A stretch of 64,000 bases of DNA from an uncultured bacterium (GTDB lineage: Bacteria > Fidelibacterota > Marinisomatia > SCGC-AAA003-L08 > GCA-002704045). Below are positions 4,039-42,835 of the stretch, piece after piece (position 1 is the stretch's first letter; the number at the start of each line of letters is the position of its first letter). The notes under the pieces are model-generated. The model did not search any database. It was given only the letters and a program-made list of their open reading frames with translations, and was not told the DNA's origin. The stretch is from contig CAYFPO010000007.1 in NCBI GenBank assembly GCA_964345035.1, positions 2,444 to 66,443 of the forward strand, in the 5' to 3' direction. A program made the position numbers and the translations under genes.

Positions 4039-4543
4039 AGGTACGGAACACCGTGTAAACGGTGAGATCACTGCAGAGTCAGTACGACTCATTGATGCAA
4101 ATGGAAAACAAGCTGGCATTCTCATCATCGAAAAAGCCCTTGAAAAAGCGGATAAAGCAGATTTGGATCTGGTTGAAATTGCACCAAATGCAAATCCACC
4201 GGTTTGTAAGTTGCTGGATTATGGTAAGTTTAAATATGAACAGCAAAGGGAACAGAAGAGAAACCGGAAAAAACAACATACAGTAAGTGTTAAAGAAATA
4301 CGACTAAGACCTAGTATAAGCGATCACGATCTTCTGACTAAATTAACAAAAGCAAAGCAATTCCTTGGAGAAGGCTGTAAATTAAAATTCACAGTCATGT
4401 TCAGAGGTAGAGAACGGGCAAGGATGGAAACCGGTGAAGTGTTATTAAACAGGGTGATTGAAATATTAGAAGATTTAGCTAAGATCGAAAAGGCGGCAGA
4501 TACTGAAGCAAACAGAATGACTTTGATCATGTCGCCAAAGTAA
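4028..4543 (+). CDS. infC: translation initiation factor IF-3, probable non-canonical ATA start
   Basis: The track ORF (4163..4543) lacks the conserved N-domain. The same frame is open back to TAG at 4022-4024 and encodes (I)ADKGTEHRVNGEITAESVRLIDANGKQAGIL..DLDLVEIAPNANPPVCKLLDYGKFKYEQ, a typical IF-3. No ATG, GTG or TTG lies upstream of the conserved RVNGEI. ATA at 4028 is preceded by GGAG at 4017-4020. Confidence 0.8.
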   Translation: MADKGTEHRVNGEITAESVRLIDANGKQAGILIIEKALEKADKADLDLVEIAPNANPPVCKLLDYGKFKYEQQREQKRNRKKQHTVSVKEIRLRPSISDHDLLTKLTKAKQFLGEGCKLKFTVMFRGRERARMETGEVLLNRVIEILEDLAKIEKAADTEANRMTLIMSPK

Positions 4544-8844: not shown

Positions 8845-9726
8845 TTGAAAACCACACTACTGGTTGGTAAACCTGTTGCTGACCATCTAAGAAAAAGACT
8901 GAGCAATGTTGTTCAGACTCTCGCAGATGCCAGTATAACACCTGGATTAGCTGCTGTAATAGTTGGTGATGATCCTGCATCGCAAGTTTATGTCAGAAAC
9001 AAGGAAAGAGCATTTGCAAAACTGGGATGCTACAGCAAAACAATTCATCTACCACAAAATACTACTGAAGAGGAAATTCTAAATCTCATAAGAAATCTAA
9101 ACAACGATCCTGCATTTCACGGTATATTAGTACAATTACCACTACCAAAACATTTAAACAGTAGAATAATTCTCCATGCTGTGAATCCCAAAAAAGATGT
9201 AGATGGGTTCCATCCTGAAAATCTGGGATTACTTCTGGAGGGGAATCCTGGTTTTGTTCCCTGTACTCCGAATGGAATTTTAGAAATCTTGAAGTATTAT
9301 CAAATTCCGGTCAATGGGCGGCATGCGGTAATCGTAGGCAGAAGCAATATTGTAGGTAAACCAATGTTTGCGTTATTATGCCAAAAATTTGAAATGGGAA
9401 ATGCCACGGTGTCCATTTGTCATACAGGTACACAGAATATTAACCAATTTACAAAACAGGCAGATATACTCATAGCCGCAGCAGGTTCACCCGGAATGAT
9501 AACAGGAGAAATGCTCAAACAAGGTGTGGATATCATTGATGTTGGGATCAATCGAGTTGAGGATGATTCTGAAAAGGGATACCATTTATGTGGAGATGTG
9601 GATACAGAATCCGTGATGGGTATTGCAAACAGTGTCACTCCCGTACCGGGAGGTGTAGGTCCATTGACCATTACAATGCTGCTCTCCAATACCATAAAAT
9701 CTGCGAAAAGAAATTTATTTAATTGA
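8845..9726 (+). CDS. folD: bifunctional methylenetetrahydrofolate dehydrogenase/cyclohydrolase
   Basis: 293 aa with a TTG start. Motifs PGLAVI.VGDDPASQVYVRNK, GILVQLPLP, VDGFHP.N.G, VIVGRSNIVGKP, TPVPGGVGP.T. Confidence 0.95.
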   Translation: MKTTLLVGKPVADHLRKRLSNVVQTLADASITPGLAAVIVGDDPASQVYVRNKERAFAKLGCYSKTIHLPQNTTEEEILNLIRNLNNDPAFHGILVQLPLPKHLNSRIILHAVNPKKDVDGFHPENLGLLLEGNPGFVPCTPNGILEILKYYQIPVNGRHAVIVGRSNIVGKPMFALLCQKFEMGNATVSICHTGTQNINQFTKQADILIAAAGSPGMITGEMLKQGVDIIDVGINRVEDDSEKGYHLCGDVDTESVMGIANSVTPVPGGVGPLTITMLLSNTIKSAKRNLFN

Positions 9727-9736
9727 TAATTTACTT

Positions 9737-9808
9737 GCCCCTGTAGTTCAATGGATAGAATGAAGGATTCCGGTTCCTTTGATACAGGTTCGACTCCTGT
9801 CGGGGGTA
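9737..9808 (+). tRNA. tRNA-Arg (anticodon CCG)
   Basis: Hand-folded. Acceptor GCCCCTG/CGGGGGT (G-U at pairs 1 and 6), anticodon arm AAGGA-TTCCGGT-TCCTT, T arm ACAGG-TTCGACT-CCTGT, discriminator A. Confidence 0.85.
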
Positions 9809-9898
9809 CAAATCTACATCCGGATAAATCCGGGATTACAATTTACATGCCGGTTTCAATTGTGAATCAAACATCGATAAATATTAGTAAATGGAAAT

Positions 9899-9972
9899 AG
9901 GATTCCGGTTCCTGGGATACAGGTTCCCTGTCCGCCCTACAGTGAAGCCGGCGGGGACTCCTGTCGGGGGTA
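9899..9972 (+). pseudogene. tRNA-Arg 3'-half copy interrupted by a 29-nt GC-rich insertion in the T-loop (unit 1)
   Basis: AGGATTCCGGTTCCTgggATACAGGTTC[cctgtccgccctacagtgaagccggcggg]GACTCCTGTCGGGGGTA compared with the genuine tRNA. There is no acceptor 5' strand and only a degenerate D-arm-like stretch (TAGTAAATGGAAAT). Confidence 0.8.
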
Positions 9973-10062
9973 CAAATCTACATCCGGATAAATCCGGGAT
10001 TACAATTTACATGCCGGTTTCAATTGTGAATCAAACATCGATAAATATTAGTAAATGGAAAT

Positions 10063-10136
10063 AGGATTCCGGTTCCTGGGATACAGGTTCCCTGTCCGCC
10101 CCGCGTGCAAGCCGGCGGGGACTCCTGTCGGGGGTA
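10063..10136 (+). pseudogene. tRNA-Arg 3'-half copy interrupted by a 29-nt GC-rich insertion in the T-loop (unit 2)
   Basis: Same as unit 1, but the insertion reads cctgtccgccccgcgtgcaagccggcggg. Confidence 0.8.
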
Positions 10137-10343
10137 CAAATCTACATCCATGGTAAACCGAAATTATAGATTTACTCAAAAAATACGGTTTTAGATATTT
10201 TAACAAAGTTACAAATAAAAAAAATCTCTATGTAATTGAATGAAATTCTTTTTTAAATTTGTAAATGTTTATCAGGTGAAATTGCATTCGGTTAACTTAC
10301 ATTTTAATTTTATGAAAAATCAAATCAATAAAGAGGATAAAGT

Positions 10344-11147
10344 ATGAATCTTGGTACCTTAGTAGGATTATTATTAGGTTTCGCATTAATAGGTACAGGT
10401 ATGTACCTGTCTGCAAGTGGTGCAGGAAAAACAATGCTTGACTATTATGATACAGTTAGTATGCTTATTGTTTTGGGTGGTTCCTTGTCCGCAACTGCAA
10501 TTGCTTTTAAAATCGGAGATGTACTGTCTATTTTTAAATCCCTGGGCAGATTATTCAAGGATGATAATTTCACATTGGGGGACGTAGTGGATGATTGTGT
10601 AGAACTGGCTGAATCAAACAGAAAAGGACAGTTGGAAGGGCAATTAGATGCAACACCATCCTCCATGCCATTCAGGATGCATCCAATTAAAACTGGCATA
10701 CAAATGATCGTTGATGGTAGTAAACCTGAGGATATTGAGGAAGTATTAGAAAATACAGAGAAATACCGTTCACAAAGGGAAGCTATCAAAGCCAATGTAT
10801 TGAAAAAAATGGGTGAATATTCACCGGCATTTGGGATGGTAGGAACATTAATCGGCCTAGTTATGATGTTGTATGGTATGGGTTCAGGTGAAAGTGAAGA
10901 TATGGCAGCCAAATTAGGTCTTTCAATGGCGGTAGCATTAATAACCACATTATATGGAGCCATATTCGCTAATTTTTTCTTCTTACCATTTTCTGATAAA
11001 CTCAAAGGTAAAAATGAACAAAAAAGTGTTGAAAGTGCTTTATGTAGTGCAGGAGTCATGCTCATAGCAAAAAAGGTGCATCCAATATTAGTTAGAGAAA
11101 AACTCAATGCATATATTCCACGGGTTCAACGAAAAACTGAAGAATAA
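10344..11147 (+). CDS. motA: MotA/PomA-family stator channel protein
   Basis: 267 aa with a 2 TM + ~100-aa cytoplasmic loop + 2 TM layout. It has the conserved TM3 motif YSPAFGMVGTLIGLV and a TM4 proline (FFFLPF). Confidence 0.85.
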   Translation: MNLGTLVGLLLGFALIGTGMYLSASGAGKTMLDYYDTVSMLIVLGGSLSATAIAFKIGDVLSIFKSLGRLFKDDNFTLGDVVDDCVELAESNRKGQLEGQLDATPSSMPFRMHPIKTGIQMIVDGSKPEDIEEVLENTEKYRSQREAIKANVLKKMGEYSPAFGMVGTLIGLVMMLYGMGSGESEDMAAKLGLSMAVALITTLYGAIFANFFFLPFSDKLKGKNEQKSVESALCSAGVMLIAKKVHPILVREKLNAYIPRVQRKTEE

Positions 11148-12176: not shown

Positions 12177-13784
12177 TCAGCATTTCAATAAATTAATGCT
12201 CACCGTTGTCAATTCACCCCCGGGAAATAGTTTTTGAAATTTTAGATCTTCGATTAAACCTGCTTTTCGGGCACAGTCCAGCATAATATCTAACTCAACA
12301 ATATATTGATCTGTATATCCATGGGTTGCATCATAGGCGGTTGCTAAAGTTCTACCTAAATTATTTGCTGTGAGTTCCGGTGGGATTGTATGCAGTTCCA
12401 GAACGAGGAGTCCGTGTTTCTCTATATATGGTTTCCAATTATTAAAATGATCAATCAGATTCTGCTCTAATTCATAATTTGGAATCCATTTACCTCTAAA
12501 CGCAAATGCTCCGGTTGAGTTGCTTTTATAAGAAGAATCCATTTGGTTAGGGGAGGTATAAATCCGGTTATGATCCAGAAATGACCGTACATTCAACAAG
12601 TTGCTCAAATCTACATTAAATTCGGATTTAATTTTTTCAGCAAATGACTTTGGGTTACCAATATTCCCATGAAGAACGTGGTGGTGAATTCCTGCATCTG
12701 ATAATGTCTTTTCTGTCGCAACTCTTGCTGCAGGGTTAAAGTCACCACCAATAATTACAAGCGGGTAATCATGTATATAAGCACCTCTGCGGGTTGAGGA
12801 TGTCACTACCTCATAAATATGTTTCAGGAATGATCCATCACCACAGCCCATATCTGCAATTCCTATGGGTTGTTGTTCGATGGGTTGATTGAATGTTTCA
12901 ATAATTATTTTATCAATGGTATCAAAATAGGTTTTATGAGCACCACCGCTTCCCCATACATTCATGGGCCGGTTCACGTGGGATTCATCTCCGGATTCTG
13001 TTCTGTGCCATAAAACGGTAGGATTTCCATACAATAATTCCGATAATTGTAGGAAAGTGGATAAATAAGACACTGTAACACCATAGGCAGTTGCAAGGGA
13101 AATAGCATATTCTCCCTCCGGAGTGACAACATAATTATCGTCATTTTTAAGAATCCAGGATTCCAATGAGAAAATTCTACTGATGCTCTGGTAATTATTG
13201 CAGACAAGGTAATCCAGTAATGTATTGGGCTCTTTCAATAATCCTGCTCTGCCGAGTGCTACTATTACAGGTCCGATGAGCCCACCATTCAGTTGATTGA
13301 GGATTTGAAATTCTACAGATGATATATCATCAATATCAGATTGTGTAAATCCCCAGAGATTCTCCGCAGACTGCAATAATTCATAAAAAATACCATCGAT
13401 ATCATGGAGATTATTTTCAGTAATCAATTTCTCCAGATACACTGCTTCAGAATACCATGGGATCAGTTGTGAATATTTATGTGCATATTGAATCATATTT
13501 CGTCCTAAGTCCGTAAGAGAATATTCAATATTTTTACCATCTTTCAACACAGTTCTCATCAACCAACCCTGTGAAGCTAATAATCTCAACGCTATATTAA
13601 TATATCCAATGTTCGCATTAAATTTTCTAATAATGGAACATAAATCCCAGTGTCCTTCTTTTTCCATATAATCAATGATTCCTTTTTTGAACAATGCATC
13701 AATTGTTGGCGCTATGGTAATTCCATCCAAATGGCGAAAAATGGTATTACGTATTTTTAATTTAGATTGTCTCGAAATATTCAA
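12177..13784 (-). CDS. class I SAM-dependent methyltransferase with a ~300-aa N-terminal extension (two winged-helix/lid-like segments)
   Basis: 535 aa. The Rossmann-fold motif I is IGIADMGCGDGSFL, followed by an acidic beta-2 end (VIIGGDFNPAA) and a later GLLVLELH. The N-terminal half holds two similar segments (FRHLDGITIAPTIDALFKKGIIDY.. and LNQLNGGLIGPVIVALGRAGLLKE..). Substrate is unknown. Confidence 0.65.
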   Translation of the reverse strand: MNISRQSKLKIRNTIFRHLDGITIAPTIDALFKKGIIDYMEKEGHWDLCSIIRKFNANIGYINIALRLLASQGWLMRTVLKDGKNIEYSLTDLGRNMIQYAHKYSQLIPWYSEAVYLEKLITENNLHDIDGIFYELLQSAENLWGFTQSDIDDISSVEFQILNQLNGGLIGPVIVALGRAGLLKEPNTLLDYLVCNNYQSISRIFSLESWILKNDDNYVVTPEGEYAISLATAYGVTVSYLSTFLQLSELLYGNPTVLWHRTESGDESHVNRPMNVWGSGGAHKTYFDTIDKIIIETFNQPIEQQPIGIADMGCGDGSFLKHIYEVVTSSTRRGAYIHDYPLVIIGGDFNPAARVATEKTLSDAGIHHHVLHGNIGNPKSFAEKIKSEFNVDLSNLLNVRSFLDHNRIYTSPNQMDSSYKSNSTGAFAFRGKWIPNYELEQNLIDHFNNWKPYIEKHGLLVLELHTIPPELTANNLGRTLATAYDATHGYTDQYIVELDIMLDCARKAGLIEDLKFQKLFPGGELTTVSINLLKC

Positions 13785-13933
13785 AATTTTATGTAATATA
13801 CACTACAAAATAGGGTATCTTTTTCTTTGCTAAGAAAAATGAACCCTATAATTTAAAAAGTTATATCGAGGAAATGAATAATCCTTTATTCAATTTTCAT
13901 ACAAAATTCTCTTTTATAAAATCAGGAGGCAAC

Positions 13934-16792
13934 ATGAAGTCCATAGATGTCAAAAGTGTAATAATCGGAATGCTATCAATGGTAATCATTTTTATGACTG
14001 TTGGTATGCGCCAGACTGTAACCAATATGGGTGATATAGGTGTCACCTCTATTACCGTGATCGGCGAGGATGATGAAAAAGCATTGTTCATCGGCAGCGG
14101 AGGTGGTGGAAACGGTTATTTAAAAACGTATAATAAATATGGTAAAACCAGCGCATATCTGGGAACCGGAGGAGGCGGAACAGGTGGTTTCAAAATCTAT
14201 AACAGAGATGGTAAAACTCTGGCCTTCATTAGTGGATCTAAAGAAGGGAGAGGATTTCTGGAAATTTCAAATTCTAATGGAGATGCTGCAGCAAAATTAC
14301 TCGCAGATGATAATGATAGTGGACAATTGAGATTAAATGATGCGGATGGCAATATGGCATTTGATTCGGATAATGCAATGACTGGAGATGCATCTTTAGG
14401 TGATGTAACTGTTAATTCACTTTCTGTAATTGATGCAGAAGATGCACTGAAAGTGTATCTGGGTGTGGATGATGAGAAAAATGGGTATCTCCGGGTCACT
14501 CATGAAATTGAAGATTATTATTATCCATCAGATGAACCGGAAATTGAATTAGATACTTTTGGTGACATTTCAGTAAAATCCATTACAATTACTGATAGTG
14601 ATAACAATACCAGGGCATTCTTAGGATTGGATGATTCCCAAAATGGTCAATTAAAACTCTCAGATACTGAAACAGAAACTGTATATCCTCTGACTGAAGC
14701 TGAGCCGGAATTAGATTTCGGGGATATTCGTGTATCGTCCCTTACTGTAGTAAACGAAAATCAAAGTGCAATAGGATATTTTGGGCCATCTGATGAGGGA
14801 AAAGGCAATATCCGCACTTTGGATATGGAAGGAAGTGTACTGTTTTCATCAGATGAAACATCCAAAGTTGAAGGAAATCTTGGAAATATCCGTGTTAATT
14901 CCATAACTGTCCAGGATGGTGCAGAAAATGAGGTAATATACCTTGGTACTGATGAAGCTTTAAATGGACTCATCAGTGTTGCAAATGCAGATGGAGATGT
15001 TACATTTACAACTTCAGATCCTGCTAAAGAGAGTAAAGAGAAAAATCTGGGGGACATCACAGTAAATTCTATTACTGTAATGAATGAATATTTCACACCT
15101 ACTACATTTATCGGAAATACACCTGAGGGAAGTGGCCGTTTGGAAGTAAATGATTTTACGGGAAATTCAATTTTTAATTCGGATCAGGCAGTACAGACGG
15201 GTGAAGAATTTGGAGAGATCCAGGTGAGATCACTTGAGATAGTTAATCAAAATCAAGAAACCATGATGACACTTGGCACCGCACAAGGACAATTCGGTGT
15301 AATGAAAGCCAGGGATTCCGCCGGAAATGTGATCTTTTCATCTGATGAGATACCCAAGGGTGGGGATGGTCAAATTACCGGTGACGATATTGTTGTGAAT
15401 TCCATTACACTAAAAAATGAAAATGATGAGATAACCGGATTCCTTGGAAATTCCGAAGATGGAAACAGTGAGTTAAGGATATACGGTACTGATGAATCTG
15501 AAACAGTATTATTAGGGACAAACTTCAGTGGACACGGATTTATGAGGACGTATAATACAGATGGTACTCAGACATTGTATATGGGAACTTCTGAAAGTGG
15601 CGACGGATTATTAAAAACGTATAGTTCAGAGGGAAAAAAGACTACTTATTTGGGTTCTAACAAAAACAATACAGGCATGTTGAACACCTATAATGATTTT
15701 GGAGATATGGCGGCAATGATTGGTACATCATCTAATAACAGCGGCACTACAAAAATGTTTGATTCAAACGGTGGATTGATTTTTTCAGTTAATGATACTT
15801 CTGGCAATACTACAACTAAAAATCTTACAGCAAAAAGTGTAACCGTAGTAGATGGTTCGGGTGCAGGGAAAGGATTTATTGGTGTTAATAATTTCGGTAA
15901 AGGATTTATCAGTACCAATAATGTATATACTGACACAATTAGGTCTGAATATGGCAATACTACTAAAATTCAAGCCAATCAGGTCGCAGTTAAAAATGAC
16001 TACGGTGAGGAAAGAATTTTCTTGGGAGTAAATCAAGAAGATATAGGTTTTATAAAAACCAATTTATCCAATACAGATATTGACTTTCTTTCAACTGAAT
16101 CGGCTAAAAATACAGAAGTCCTGGGAGATATTCAGGTTTCCTCTTTATCCATCACTACCCCGGAGGGAGATACCCGTGTATTTTTGGGGAGAAATAAGGA
16201 AGGAAATGGAATCATTACCACTCATAATGAAATAGGCGCCCAGACTAACTTTCTTGGCTCAGATATTGACGGTAGTGGTAAACTACAGATATCAAATACA
16301 ACTGGACAAAAAATTGCGACAATCGGAACAGGAGTGAATGATGGAGGTTCATTGACTACATACAATCGAATGAATGAGATAACTGCATCATTGGGTGTCA
16401 GTGAAGATGGTGTTACCGGTCACCTCACTGGAATTGATCACGTGGAAACATTTAATCAAATTGGTTTTAAAACCGCTTACTTTGGGAACGGAAGTAGTGA
16501 TGAAGGACTGTTACGTGTATTTAATGCAGAAGGTGTACAATCCATGTTGATGGGGACCTTATCCACAGGTGGTGGAATTATCACATCAAACACTAAAGGA
16601 CTGATTACATCCTTTCTTGGAACCAGCGGTAGTGATGGCGGTCATTTGATCACTTATAATTCTTATGGTAAGAAAACATCCTTTATGGGTACAAATAAGC
16701 ATAATGACGGGATGGTGATCCTACGGGATAAAGGTGGCAATATCGGATGGGGAAAAGATGGGAGAATTCCGGCATACTACGCAAAACAATAA
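13934..16792 (+). CDS. membrane-anchored repeat protein (single N-terminal TM, then ~36 degenerate 22-29-aa Gly/Asn/Thr-rich repeats)
   Basis: ORF 13874..16792. I prefer the ATG at 13934, preceded by AGGAGG. TM helix SVIIGMLSMVIIFMTVG. Repeats are of the form G.G.L.(T/V)YN..GK.T.YLGT.... and of the form (L/F)GDI.V.SITV.D......(Y/F)LG.....G.L.... No enzymatic motif is recognised. Confidence 0.75.
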   Translation: MKSIDVKSVIIGMLSMVIIFMTVGMRQTVTNMGDIGVTSITVIGEDDEKALFIGSGGGGNGYLKTYNKYGKTSAYLGTGGGGTGGFKIYNRDGKTLAFISGSKEGRGFLEISNSNGDAAAKLLADDNDSGQLRLNDADGNMAFDSDNAMTGDASLGDVTVNSLSVIDAEDALKVYLGVDDEKNGYLRVTHEIEDYYYPSDEPEIELDTFGDISVKSITITDSDNNTRAFLGLDDSQNGQLKLSDTETETVYPLTEAEPELDFGDIRVSSLTVVNENQSAIGYFGPSDEGKGNIRTLDMEGSVLFSSDETSKVEGNLGNIRVNSITVQDGAENEVIYLGTDEALNGLISVANADGDVTFTTSDPAKESKEKNLGDITVNSITVMNEYFTPTTFIGNTPEGSGRLEVNDFTGNSIFNSDQAVQTGEEFGEIQVRSLEIVNQNQETMMTLGTAQGQFGVMKARDSAGNVIFSSDEIPKGGDGQITGDDIVVNSITLKNENDEITGFLGNSEDGNSELRIYGTDESETVLLGTNFSGHGFMRTYNTDGTQTLYMGTSESGDGLLKTYSSEGKKTTYLGSNKNNTGMLNTYNDFGDMAAMIGTSSNNSGTTKMFDSNGGLIFSVNDTSGNTTTKNLTAKSVTVVDGSGAGKGFIGVNNFGKGFISTNNVYTDTIRSEYGNTTKIQANQVAVKNDYGEERIFLGVNQEDIGFIKTNLSNTDIDFLSTESAKNTEVLGDIQVSSLSITTPEGDTRVFLGRNKEGNGIITTHNEIGAQTNFLGSDIDGSGKLQISNTTGQKIATIGTGVNDGGSLTTYNRMNEITASLGVSEDGVTGHLTGIDHVETFNQIGFKTAYFGNGSSDEGLLRVFNAEGVQSMLMGTLSTGGGIITSNTKGLITSFLGTSGSDGGHLITYNSYGKKTSFMGTNKHNDGMVILRDKGGNIGWGKDGRIPAYYAKQ

Positions 16793-41448: not shown

Positions 41449-41533
41449 GCTGAAGTGGTGGAACTGGTAGACACGCTGTCTTGAGGGGGCAGTGTCCGAG
41501 ACGGATGTGCGGGTTCGAGTCCCGCCTTCAGCA
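41449..41533 (+). tRNA. tRNA-Leu (anticodon GAG), class II with long variable arm
   Basis: Hand-folded. Acceptor GCTGAAG/CTTCAGC, anticodon arm CTGTC-TTGAGGG-GGCAG, long variable arm, T arm GCGGG-TTCGAGT-CCCGC, discriminator A. Confidence 0.88.
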
Positions 41534-41557
41534 CAGTTTAATGATGGAGATTATTCA

Positions 41558-42835
41558 ATGAGAATATTAACTGTAATTATTTTAATTTCAACCGGATTCA
41601 GTCAAACTGGTTCGAACATATCTGCCAGTTCATTGTTCGCTGCCGGGGAATTTATACAAGCACGAGAAACTATTTTACAAACCATAGAATCAGGAAGTGA
41701 AAATCATGAATATTTCAAGTTAGCTGCTGAAATATTTATTCGGCTTGATGATCTGGAAAATGCAAATTCATATCTAACAAAAGCCATAGAGCTTGCCCCC
41801 AAAAATACAGAATATCGCGAAAGATGGGAATCTCTGAATGATATGAGATCCCGGTTAAATGAATCCAAGAAATCTTTTGATAACGGCTTTACTGATGAAT
41901 CTATTATGAATTATGAAAAAACCATTCAAGCTTATCCAGAGTTTGCATTAGCCTTTTATAATTTTGGATTAACCTATTTTAAGTTGAATGAATTTGATTT
42001 GGCTGTGGAAAATTTCCGAAAAGCATCTGAACTGAATCCTTTTGAAATTAAATATACGTCATCAATTTCAAATATTGGTGCAAAGTTGACTCAGCAAGGG
42101 AACGAAGAATATAGACGGAGGGATTATGATCTTGCACTGGATTATTATCAACAAGCTGTGAGATATGTCCCGGAATTTTCAGAAGCACGATTTAAATCAG
42201 CACTAATTATGAACAAATTGGGTGATTACGAAAATGCAAAATCTACACTACACAAAAATCTGGAGATAGACCCACAACATCTGCAGTCTTATAAACTCCT
42301 GGGGGATGTATATTCAAGATTGGGCGACTTAGAGAATGCTTTGGTTTGGTATGGTAATGCGGTAAAAATAAATTCAAAATATGATAAGGCGTACTATGCT
42401 CTTGGAAAAACTTATATTAATCTGGGAAAATTTGCAGAAGCAGAATCCGAATTAAAAAATGCAATTAATGTAAATCCAGAATACTCAAAAGCTTATGAAT
42501 CATTGGGATTTATTTATTCATCAAGGGAAGAATATAAATCAGCAGCAGATCAATATCTATTGGCAGTGAAATTTAATCCGAAATCTTTTGATGCATATTC
42601 CAGGCTGGCTTCTGCATATAATGCACAGGGAATGTTTAGCCAAGCGAGGGATGCAGCAAAAACGTCATTGGATTTAAAGAAGAAAAATGCCGGTGCATCA
42701 TATGAATTAGGGGTAGCTGAAAAAGCGCTTGGCAATATTGCCGCAGCCAAATCTGCATTTGAAAGTGCCACAAGAGATAAAAAATGGAGAAAGATTGCAA
42801 AATACGAACTCACAATGATTGAAAAAGGATTATAG
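41558..42835 (+). CDS. TPR-repeat protein (secreted or lipoprotein-like)
   Basis: The track ORF starts at 41492, inside tRNA-Leu. I trimmed it to the ATG at 41558 (GGAG 8 nt upstream), giving MRILTVIILISTGFSQ. It has many 34-aa TPR units (A..Y..A....P....A...LG..Y). Confidence 0.8.
   Translation: MRILTVIILISTGFSQTGSNISASSLFAAGEFIQARETILQTIESGSENHEYFKLAAEIFIRLDDLENANSYLTKAIELAPKNTEYRERWESLNDMRSRLNESKKSFDNGFTDESIMNYEKTIQAYPEFALAFYNFGLTYFKLNEFDLAVENFRKASELNPFEIKYTSSISNIGAKLTQQGNEEYRRRDYDLALDYYQQAVRYVPEFSEARFKSALIMNKLGDYENAKSTLHKNLEIDPQHLQSYKLLGDVYSRLGDLENALVWYGNAVKINSKYDKAYYALGKTYINLGKFAEAESELKNAINVNPEYSKAYESLGFIYSSREEYKSAADQYLLAVKFNPKSFDAYSRLASAYNAQGMFSQARDAAKTSLDLKKKNAGASYELGVAEKALGNIAAAKSAFESATRDKKWRKIAKYELTMIEKGL

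Follow-up and report, generated by a model that had tools for sequence, protein, structure and literature searches.

What process left the array of partial tRNA copies that directly follows a tRNA-Arg(CCG) gene in an uncultured Marinimicrobia-related bacterium? The gene lies in a 64,000-nucleotide stretch of contig CAYFPO010000007.1 (assembly GCA_964345035.1), which was analyzed over its whole length and is referred to here as the window, and it is followed by two tandem 164-bp units that are bounded by exact copies of the tRNA 3' end and contain further tRNA-like sequence. The repeats have a regular anatomy, the tRNA itself is intact, genes and recombinases are absent, and the variation seen at the locus is confined to the array. 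We propose that site-specific integration at the 3' end of the tRNA-Arg(CCG) gene left the array as a scar without cargo, bounded by att sites and similar to a cis-mobilizable element (CIME), and we give this reading a probability of about 0.45.

A first-pass annotation of the window, made from the sequence alone, placed a genuine tRNA-Arg(CCG) ahead of the array, and this holds in both ARAGORN and Rfam, the latter giving a full-length tRNA alignment of 62.2 bits over positions 9737-9808. The discriminator is the A at 9808, CCA is not encoded, and the acceptor stem includes two wobble pairs (G1-U72 and U6-G67). The folD gene (8845-9726) ends with its stop codon 10 nt upstream of the tRNA, and a motA-like gene (10344-11147) begins 535 nt past it. 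The segments of the locus are as follows.

9737-9809, + strand: intact tRNA-Arg(CCG), as called by ARAGORN.
9792-9821, + strand: first copy of the 30-nt core, consisting of the 3' part of the T-loop, the 3' strands of the T-stem and acceptor stem, the discriminator and 13 nt downstream.
9822-9898, + strand: spacer of unit 1, 77 nt, 31% GC.
9899-9926, + strand: unit 1 copy of tRNA positions 28-56, from repeat search and alignment.
9927-9955, + strand: T-loop insert of unit 1, 29 nt, 72% GC, reading CCTGTCCGCCC-TACAGTGA-AGCCGGCGGG.
9956-9985, + strand: second copy of the core, 30 nt, exact.
9986-10062, + strand: spacer of unit 2, identical to that of unit 1.
10063-10090, + strand: unit 2 copy of tRNA positions 28-56.
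10091-10119, + strand: T-loop insert of unit 2, with the patch CGCGTGCA at 10102-10109.
10120-10149, + strand: third copy of the core, 30 nt, exact, the distal and attR-like end, after which unique DNA begins with ATGGTAAACC.
Unit junctions: GGCGGG, then the core, then GGATAAATCC.

Tandem Repeats Finder reports the array at 9792-10149 with a period of 164, 2.2 copies, 97% matches and a score of 686. The annotation had described two perfect tandem units; the tandem arrangement and the period are correct, but the units are identical at 158/164 positions, and all six differences fall inside one 8-nt patch (9938-9945 in unit 1) that is the sole site of difference between them (9938-9944 versus 10102-10108; unit 1 reads TACAGTGA and unit 2 CGCGTGCA). 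Each unit consists of a 77-nt spacer, a 28-nt tRNA-like block, a 29-nt insert and the 30-nt core. The core, GACTCCTGTCGGGGGTACAAATCTACATCC, is made up of the final 17 nt of the tRNA and 13 nt downstream of it, and its three copies (starting at 9792, 9956 and 10120) have no mismatches, with none expected from shuffled sequence. The segment between neighboring cores is 134 bp long and gene-free. The 13 nt CAAATCTACATCC that start each unit reappear after the last one at 10137-10149, as first described, and unique DNA (ATGG...) follows from there. The 28-nt block runs from the anticodon stem-loop through the variable region and the 5' strand of the T-stem to the third nt of the T-loop, and matches the tRNA at 26/28 positions with TT changed to GG. 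Each unit had been said to end in the 3' half of the tRNA; the 28-nt block and the last 17 nt of that half are indeed present, but they are interrupted by the 29-nt insert, whose CCGCC and GGCGG arms are able to pair as a predicted hairpin around the 8-nt patch.

An exact direct repeat of a tRNA 3' end is the standard footprint of tRNA-targeted integration (bioRxiv 10.1101/2020.12.28.424599). At this locus the direct repeat is the tRNA 3' end and its proximal copy completes an intact tRNA, so that the att-type footprint originally suggested is retained in these two respects, although not as a plain duplicated 3' half. Cores flank each unit and integration and transfer genes are absent, the state described for CIMEs, which together with accretion are defined in PMC5704250. 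Simple tandem duplication cannot make the first core-134 bp-core arrangement, because the distal partial copy abuts unique DNA, and because the same internal junctions occur in both units these cannot have arisen by independent decay; copying acted on the 164-bp unit as a whole. Similarity to the tRNA locus is mosaic, at 100% over the 30-nt core and about 70-75%, with gaps, over the adjoining bases, and the 72%-GC insert, as judged by its composition, is foreign to this 37%-GC genome. Relatives with the same pheST-zapA-folD-tRNA-Arg synteny have one tRNA and no array. Among the three explanations offered in the first-pass annotation, the residue of a decayed island fits best, with the addition that the residual unit has been copied.

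The relatives bearing on this were found through FolD. The closest FolD among GTDB species genomes is 66% identical, with Marinimicrobia next at about 55%, and the next relatives in a large protein collection are at about 74%. In these relatives pheST-zapA-folD is followed by a single tRNA-Arg(CCG) and sometimes by a tRNA-Sec, after which gene content differs. No array was present in the FolD-based loci from GTDB genomes or in contigs at 73-74% FolD identity, where folD is followed by tRNA-Arg, and partial tRNA repeats were absent from about 100 loci compared, this organism's own contigs excepted.

If the array is an integration scar, the tRNA gene would have recombined with an element that bore its own copy of the tRNA 3' end, an event that would have rebuilt the tRNA and moved the old 3' end downstream. 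The element would then have been lost by deletion save for about 134 bp of att arms, leaving core-134 bp-core, a CIME state shrunk to its att arms. Copying of the 164-bp unit as a unit may have followed, through unequal recombination of one 30-bp core with another or the action of an integrase in trans, and changes clustered in the hairpin loop and in the variable-loop region would later have accumulated in the copies. Such an array needs no function and is probably carried along in the tRNA 3' trailer. A 3' strand supplied by the integrating element is one possible cause of the wobble pairs and the absent CCA of the tRNA.

The locus resembles the att duplications at tRNA sites used by prophages, islands and tycheposons in having a direct repeat of the tRNA 3' end with the intact tRNA proximal and the partial copies distal. 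At such sites each newer insertion displaces its predecessors outward, and it is common to find remnants with additional partial tRNAs (bioRxiv 10.1101/2020.12.28.424599). Unlike the duplications made by integrase elements, only 134 bp separate the repeats here, there is no integrase or integrase fragment in the 64 kb, and the tRNA copy is split by the 29-nt insert. The array likewise differs from the CIMEs and tandem accretions of the Streptococcus ICESt1 family, as its unit is 164 bp and non-coding and no related parent integrative and conjugative or integrative and mobilizable element (ICE or IME) was found in viral, phage, plasmid and JGI metagenome searches; we know of no CIME as small as 164 bp. 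A close precedent is provided by the Dehalococcoides ssrA islands of the serine recombinase DsiB, in which a 20-bp repeat of the gene 3' end starts midway along the T-loop, a conserved non-gene motif lies directly upstream of each repeat, and islands occur in tandem, some of them without an integration module and thought to be CIME-like (PMC3146451). These islands share with the array a foreign motif to the left of the repeat and the tandem arrangement, and differ from it in being long enough for a six-gene integration module and rdhA clusters, many of them with dsiB, in targeting tmRNA, and in the length of the repeat (20 bp versus 30 bp here). For a footprint of this familiar type, the array is unusually small.

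Several observations weigh against an integration scar. There is no integrase near the repeats, and no foreign cargo between them, as the intervening 134 bp contain no gene. The absence of an integrase from the 64 kb had been stated at the outset, and a Pfam scan of the 57 non-overlapping open reading frames (ORFs) of at least 90 aa in the window yielded no recombinase, integrase, excisionase or transposase. An element carrying this att sequence was not found by exact patterns or BLAST in the IMG/VR, phage, plasmid and JGI metagenome searches. The 28-nt tRNA-like block to the left of the 29-nt insert is unpredicted by a simple attP model. The core contains an inverted repeat (GGGGGTA / TACATCC, with the spacer CAAATC) that, read directly from the sequence, is imperfect at 5/7 complementary positions and possibly due to chance. 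Finally, the spacer is marginally collinear with the upstream flank and 5' half of the tRNA (p 0.026 to 0.078), and its first 25 nt or so are marginally similar to the distal flank after the last core (anchored p ~0.06); both similarities favor an origin by duplication.

In one such history, unequal crossing-over between short AT-rich repeats (ATAATTTACT / ATAGATTTACT) would have duplicated the tRNA gene together with some 15 nt of its upstream and some 40 nt of its downstream flank. The extra copies would then have decayed, by expansion of about 22 nt in the D-arm region and by the 29-nt T-loop insertion, with the pseudo-unit being duplicated again later. Bacteria commonly carry tandem arrays of identical tRNA genes, and the array shares with those that include pseudo-tRNAs its head-to-tail repeats with tRNA-derived sequence and a possible common upstream motif. 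A motif of the form AATTTAC(T/A)TGCC is present at the 5' border of the tRNA (the 12-nt AATTTACTTGCC) and at the matching place in each unit (AATTTACATGCC, 9840-9851 in the unit 1 spacer), the collinear match of the spacer to the upstream flank and tRNA 5' half beats shuffled sequences, and the bases just past the core are alike in the units and after the last core, which suggests a possible descent of the unit from a duplicate of the entire tRNA gene and its flanks. Every one of these signals is marginal on its own in AT-rich DNA, however, and divergence is mosaic and not graded, with a core at 30/30 and an anticodon block at 26/28 lying beside barely alignable stretches. At a flank divergence of about 25% the chance of 30/30 identity by descent is about 2e-4, which would call for gene conversion or selection as well. 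The units are moreover unrecognizable as tRNAs, with none called in them by default ARAGORN or Rfam, relatives have a single tRNA at this site, and the 72%-GC insert is compositionally foreign. In a search for hidden pseudo-tRNAs, ARAGORN with relaxed thresholds or in intron mode gave only inconsistent low-score calls. We consider duplication and decay of the tRNA gene unlikely, though it is the leading rival of the scar; a hybrid history, in which the attP region of an integrating element was once captured from a tRNA locus, is possible.

The repeats could in principle also be a product of assembly, and the first-pass annotation had called for raw-read evidence on this point. Contigs with exactly this FolD or MotA protein are present in several public runs, available as Logan contigs assembled at k=31 and as the assembly ERZ930061 (our loci L002 and L006) at k=127. 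One Logan contig (L007, from SRR22722176) terminates at 9821, the final base of core 1, and three others (L003, L004 and L005, from SRR22722179, ERR2281803 and ERR2281799) begin at 10120, the first base of core 3. Breaks at the core borders in four runs indicate that the core has two left and two right contexts, as a de Bruijn graph behaves in this way at a 30-mer with two contexts on each side. ERZ930061 reads through the locus as tRNA-core-one unit-core; its unit has the unit 2 patch but TTTGTT in place of the TGGGAT of the window in the variable-loop region, giving at least three unit haplotypes. Its flanks have no mismatches to the window in 3,947 + 4,005 nt, so that in about 8 kb variation is limited to the array. 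The four runs showed no empty site.

That the second unit, or the whole array, arose from misjoined reads of strain variants has two points in its favor: the 157-nt identical run exceeds the k-mers usual in assembly, and the assemblies disagree on one or two units. Yet within the window each of the two unit haplotypes has its own right-hand context, the contig breaks in four independent runs coincide with both borders of the 30-nt core, which is expected only if the core is truly repeated with different flanks, and the tRNA-core-unit-core structure is also present in the independent k=127 assembly. We therefore regard an artefact as extremely unlikely and the array as real, while its copy number (1, 2 or more) cannot be fixed by short-read assembly, since the units share the 157-nt identical run. 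The counts of one unit in ERZ930061 and two in the window, with identical flanks, may reflect collapse of short reads; a graph argument nevertheless suggests that ERZ930061 truly has one unit and that the source of the window has at least two.

A further possibility is that the unit is a functional non-coding device, of which we distinguish two forms. In the first it would be a 164-bp 'attP-only' mini-element that excises as a minicircle and re-enters the tRNA by means of an integrase encoded elsewhere. In the second it would be an array of tRNA-mimic RNAs expressed in the tRNA 3' trailer, with the insert standing in for the acceptor strand (GCCC/GCCCC) and the T-stem strand (CCGGCGGG); a minihelix of about 12 bp with a discriminator A would form the end of each unit and could be readable by RNase P, RNase Z or the CCA-adding enzyme, and the 8-nt variable patch would mark where the tRNA body would branch off. 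The 3' trailers of tRNAs are known to function as small RNAs, as with 3'ETS-leuZ in E. coli. The single architecture common to both units indicates that the 164-bp unit propagates, the array alone varies within about 8 kb in at least three unit haplotypes, and the insert with the tRNA-like part has a GC content of 58-59%, compared with 37% for the genome, as is typical of structured RNAs in AT-rich genomes. Read-through is plausible, as no terminator-like site separates the tRNA from motA.

Both window units are predicted to fold into the same type of helix. The GCCC(C) and CCGGCGGG segments of the insert are predicted to pair with the 3' strands CCUGUCGG and GGGGU in a 12-bp helix (4+8 or 5+7 bp) that closes at the discriminator A and has the variable patch at its junction. 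This predicted helix resembles a tRNA acceptor/T-arm minihelix, a resemblance without statistical or comparative support: folding energy is no better than in dinucleotide shuffles for the unit, the array, the tRNA-like 79-mers of the three haplotypes or the spacer (z -0.15 to -1.5; -0.85 for the unit and -0.32 to -0.67 for the tRNA-like part), and the three sequences are nearly identical. The TGGGAT to TTTGTT variant loses one predicted pair with no compensation. The promoter-like pair TTGTGA-N16-TATTAG noted in the spacer is present at 9860-9887, but it fails promoter-scan criteria, and promoter-like sites occur at chance level (4 versus 3.4 expected in shuffles). Searching Rfam 15 on both strands at E values up to 10 returned tRNA as the only known RNA family, other matches being at or below 21 bits and far under threshold. 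On these grounds the expressed array of tRNA-like RNAs envisaged in the first-pass annotation is not supported.

Copies of the unit elsewhere would bear on the mini-element form, and none were found. In the whole 64 kb the core, spacer and hairpin and both patches do not recur outside the array, and the first-pass annotation had likewise seen no distal att copy in the intergenic regions it checked up to 18 kb. Matches from pattern scans of IMG/VR were either complete tRNAs or coding sequence hit by chance, three GC-rich genes were matched by chance in the JGI metagenome scan, and phage and plasmid blastn gave nothing relevant. Six-frame translation of the array had no matches among 5.8 billion proteins, and the only ORF to span a unit, of 57 aa, has no record in the protein database. 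This absence is weak evidence, as exact-match scans would miss diverged relatives. Mini-elements mobilized in cis, another of the explanations first offered, retain some plausibility, with no second site or copy in any search to speak for them. Overall a functional device, in either form, seems unlikely to us. We place still less weight on the specific proposal that the unit is a non-coding 'attP-only' miniature integrative element, an integrase counterpart of the miniature inverted-repeat transposable element (MITE), that cycles at tRNA-Arg by way of a recombinase encoded elsewhere and may be expressed from the trailer as a mimic of the tRNA top half with a hypervariable 8-nt loop, which is quite improbable.

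The units contain several smaller motifs. The CCGGAT-AA-ATCCGG hairpin described earlier exists (9820-9833 in unit 1), and the center of the palindrome ATCC|GGAT coincides with the right border of the core. CCGG-centered motifs occur five times per 164-nt period (ATCCGGAT, ATCCGGGA, TGCCGGTT, TTCCGGTT and AGCCGGCG), compared with about 0.75 expected; the count includes one across the core border, with four inside unit 1 (P ~0.007), and the motifs span 9820-9951 and 9984-10115. They could be arm sites for protein binding or methylation sites. The core inverted repeat, the border palindrome and the CCGG motifs are compatible with sites for a recombinase or accessory proteins, none of them being significant alone.

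Other classes of repeat were tried and rejected. Dispersed hairpins like repetitive extragenic palindromes are not indicated, as CCGCC-N6-20-GGCGG and the insert motifs are confined to the two units within the window. The window contains no donor sequence for the variable patches, and the patch differences lack the adenine specificity of a diversity-generating retroelement. Inversion of the loop is excluded by direct reading, since reverse-complementing the unit 1 loop does not yield that of unit 2. Integron attC sites, including clusters of attC sites lacking integron-integrases (CALINs), do not fit, because the unit has only three GTT sequences (GTTTCAA, GTTCCTG and GTTCCCT) and none fits GTTRRRY.

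The 57 ORFs of the window are either housekeeping genes or unassigned. The ORFs include those for ThrRS, L20, PheST, ZapA, FolD, a MotA/MotB-like stator pair, an AprA-like methyltransferase and riboflavin and folate enzymes, together with SMC, PGK, TIM, SecG, RecN, TrkAH, thioredoxin reductase and others, and a few have no family; Por_Secre_tail and FlgD_ig domains are present among them. The genes downstream of the array had been called accessory-looking, a status that we find unsupported: the motAB pair scores as PomA/MotB-like, an ordinary stator, and a defense island is rejected, no PADLOC system being present. The AprA-like three-domain methyltransferase (12177-13784, - strand; Methyltransf_36, E 1.5e-101) lies just past the motAB-like pair, and back to back with it is a gene for a 972-aa protein (13874-16792, + strand) with no Pfam, NCBIfam or PADLOC match. 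The gap between the array and motA (10150-10343) is 194 nt with about 21% GC; it contains an AT-only inverted repeat (10209-10224 / 10249-10264) and a 35-aa ORF (10240-10347) annotated by gene callers in other assemblies. Farther along, the longest mechanical ORF of a TPR protein (41492-42835) overlaps a tRNA-Leu(GAG) at 41449-41534, and its true start is probably further downstream than 41492.

Some features of the related loci also deserve mention. In the three relatives that are readable through the tRNA 3' end, acceptor stems are perfect and CCA is encoded in two (L096 and L011), and CCA is absent in the third (L018). Where relatives have tRNA-Arg(CCG), ARAGORN calls a tRNA-Gln(CTG) in locus L095 (3906-3980; JGI 3300007514, Ga0105020_1000490). 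Compared with the tRNA of L096 (3906-3982) it has several transitions, mostly C to T and including the anticodon change CCG to CTG, and those in the acceptor and D stems each replace a G-C pair by G-U; a pseudo-tRNA, an anticodon shift and damage-like errors are all possible explanations. A tRNA-Sec adjoins the folD-linked tRNA-Arg in relatives with about 73% FolD identity (L096, 3990-4084; L095, about 4090-4190), L095 having some 110 nt of extra DNA between its two tRNAs, and the site in the window is without tRNA-Sec. In the closest GTDB relative (L008, 4934-4994 of CAZSJY010000034.1; FolD 66%) the contig stops in the T-stem (...GGTTACAGG) of a tRNA-Arg(TCG) after folD, which might reflect a repeated tRNA 3' end there too, or merely low coverage (6.8x). 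Locus L097 (626-1942 of ERZ23486381 scaffold_24835) encodes a 438-aa 'FolD' with both FolD domains present twice, probably a scaffolding or assembly duplication of the record.

On the integration-scar reading, the array is relevant to the mapping of islands from partial-tRNA repeats, in which micro-scars of this kind could pass for pseudo-tRNAs or genes of small RNAs. It would be of greater importance only if the unit were mobile or expressed, as a minimal integrase substrate or as a tRNA-mimic RNA with a variable loop. If it is an integration scar, nothing more than att arms need remain of an integrated element for copying to go on, and tRNA-Arg(CCG) would be a past or present integration site in an uncultured Marinimicrobia-related bacterium with signature domains of a type IX secretion system.

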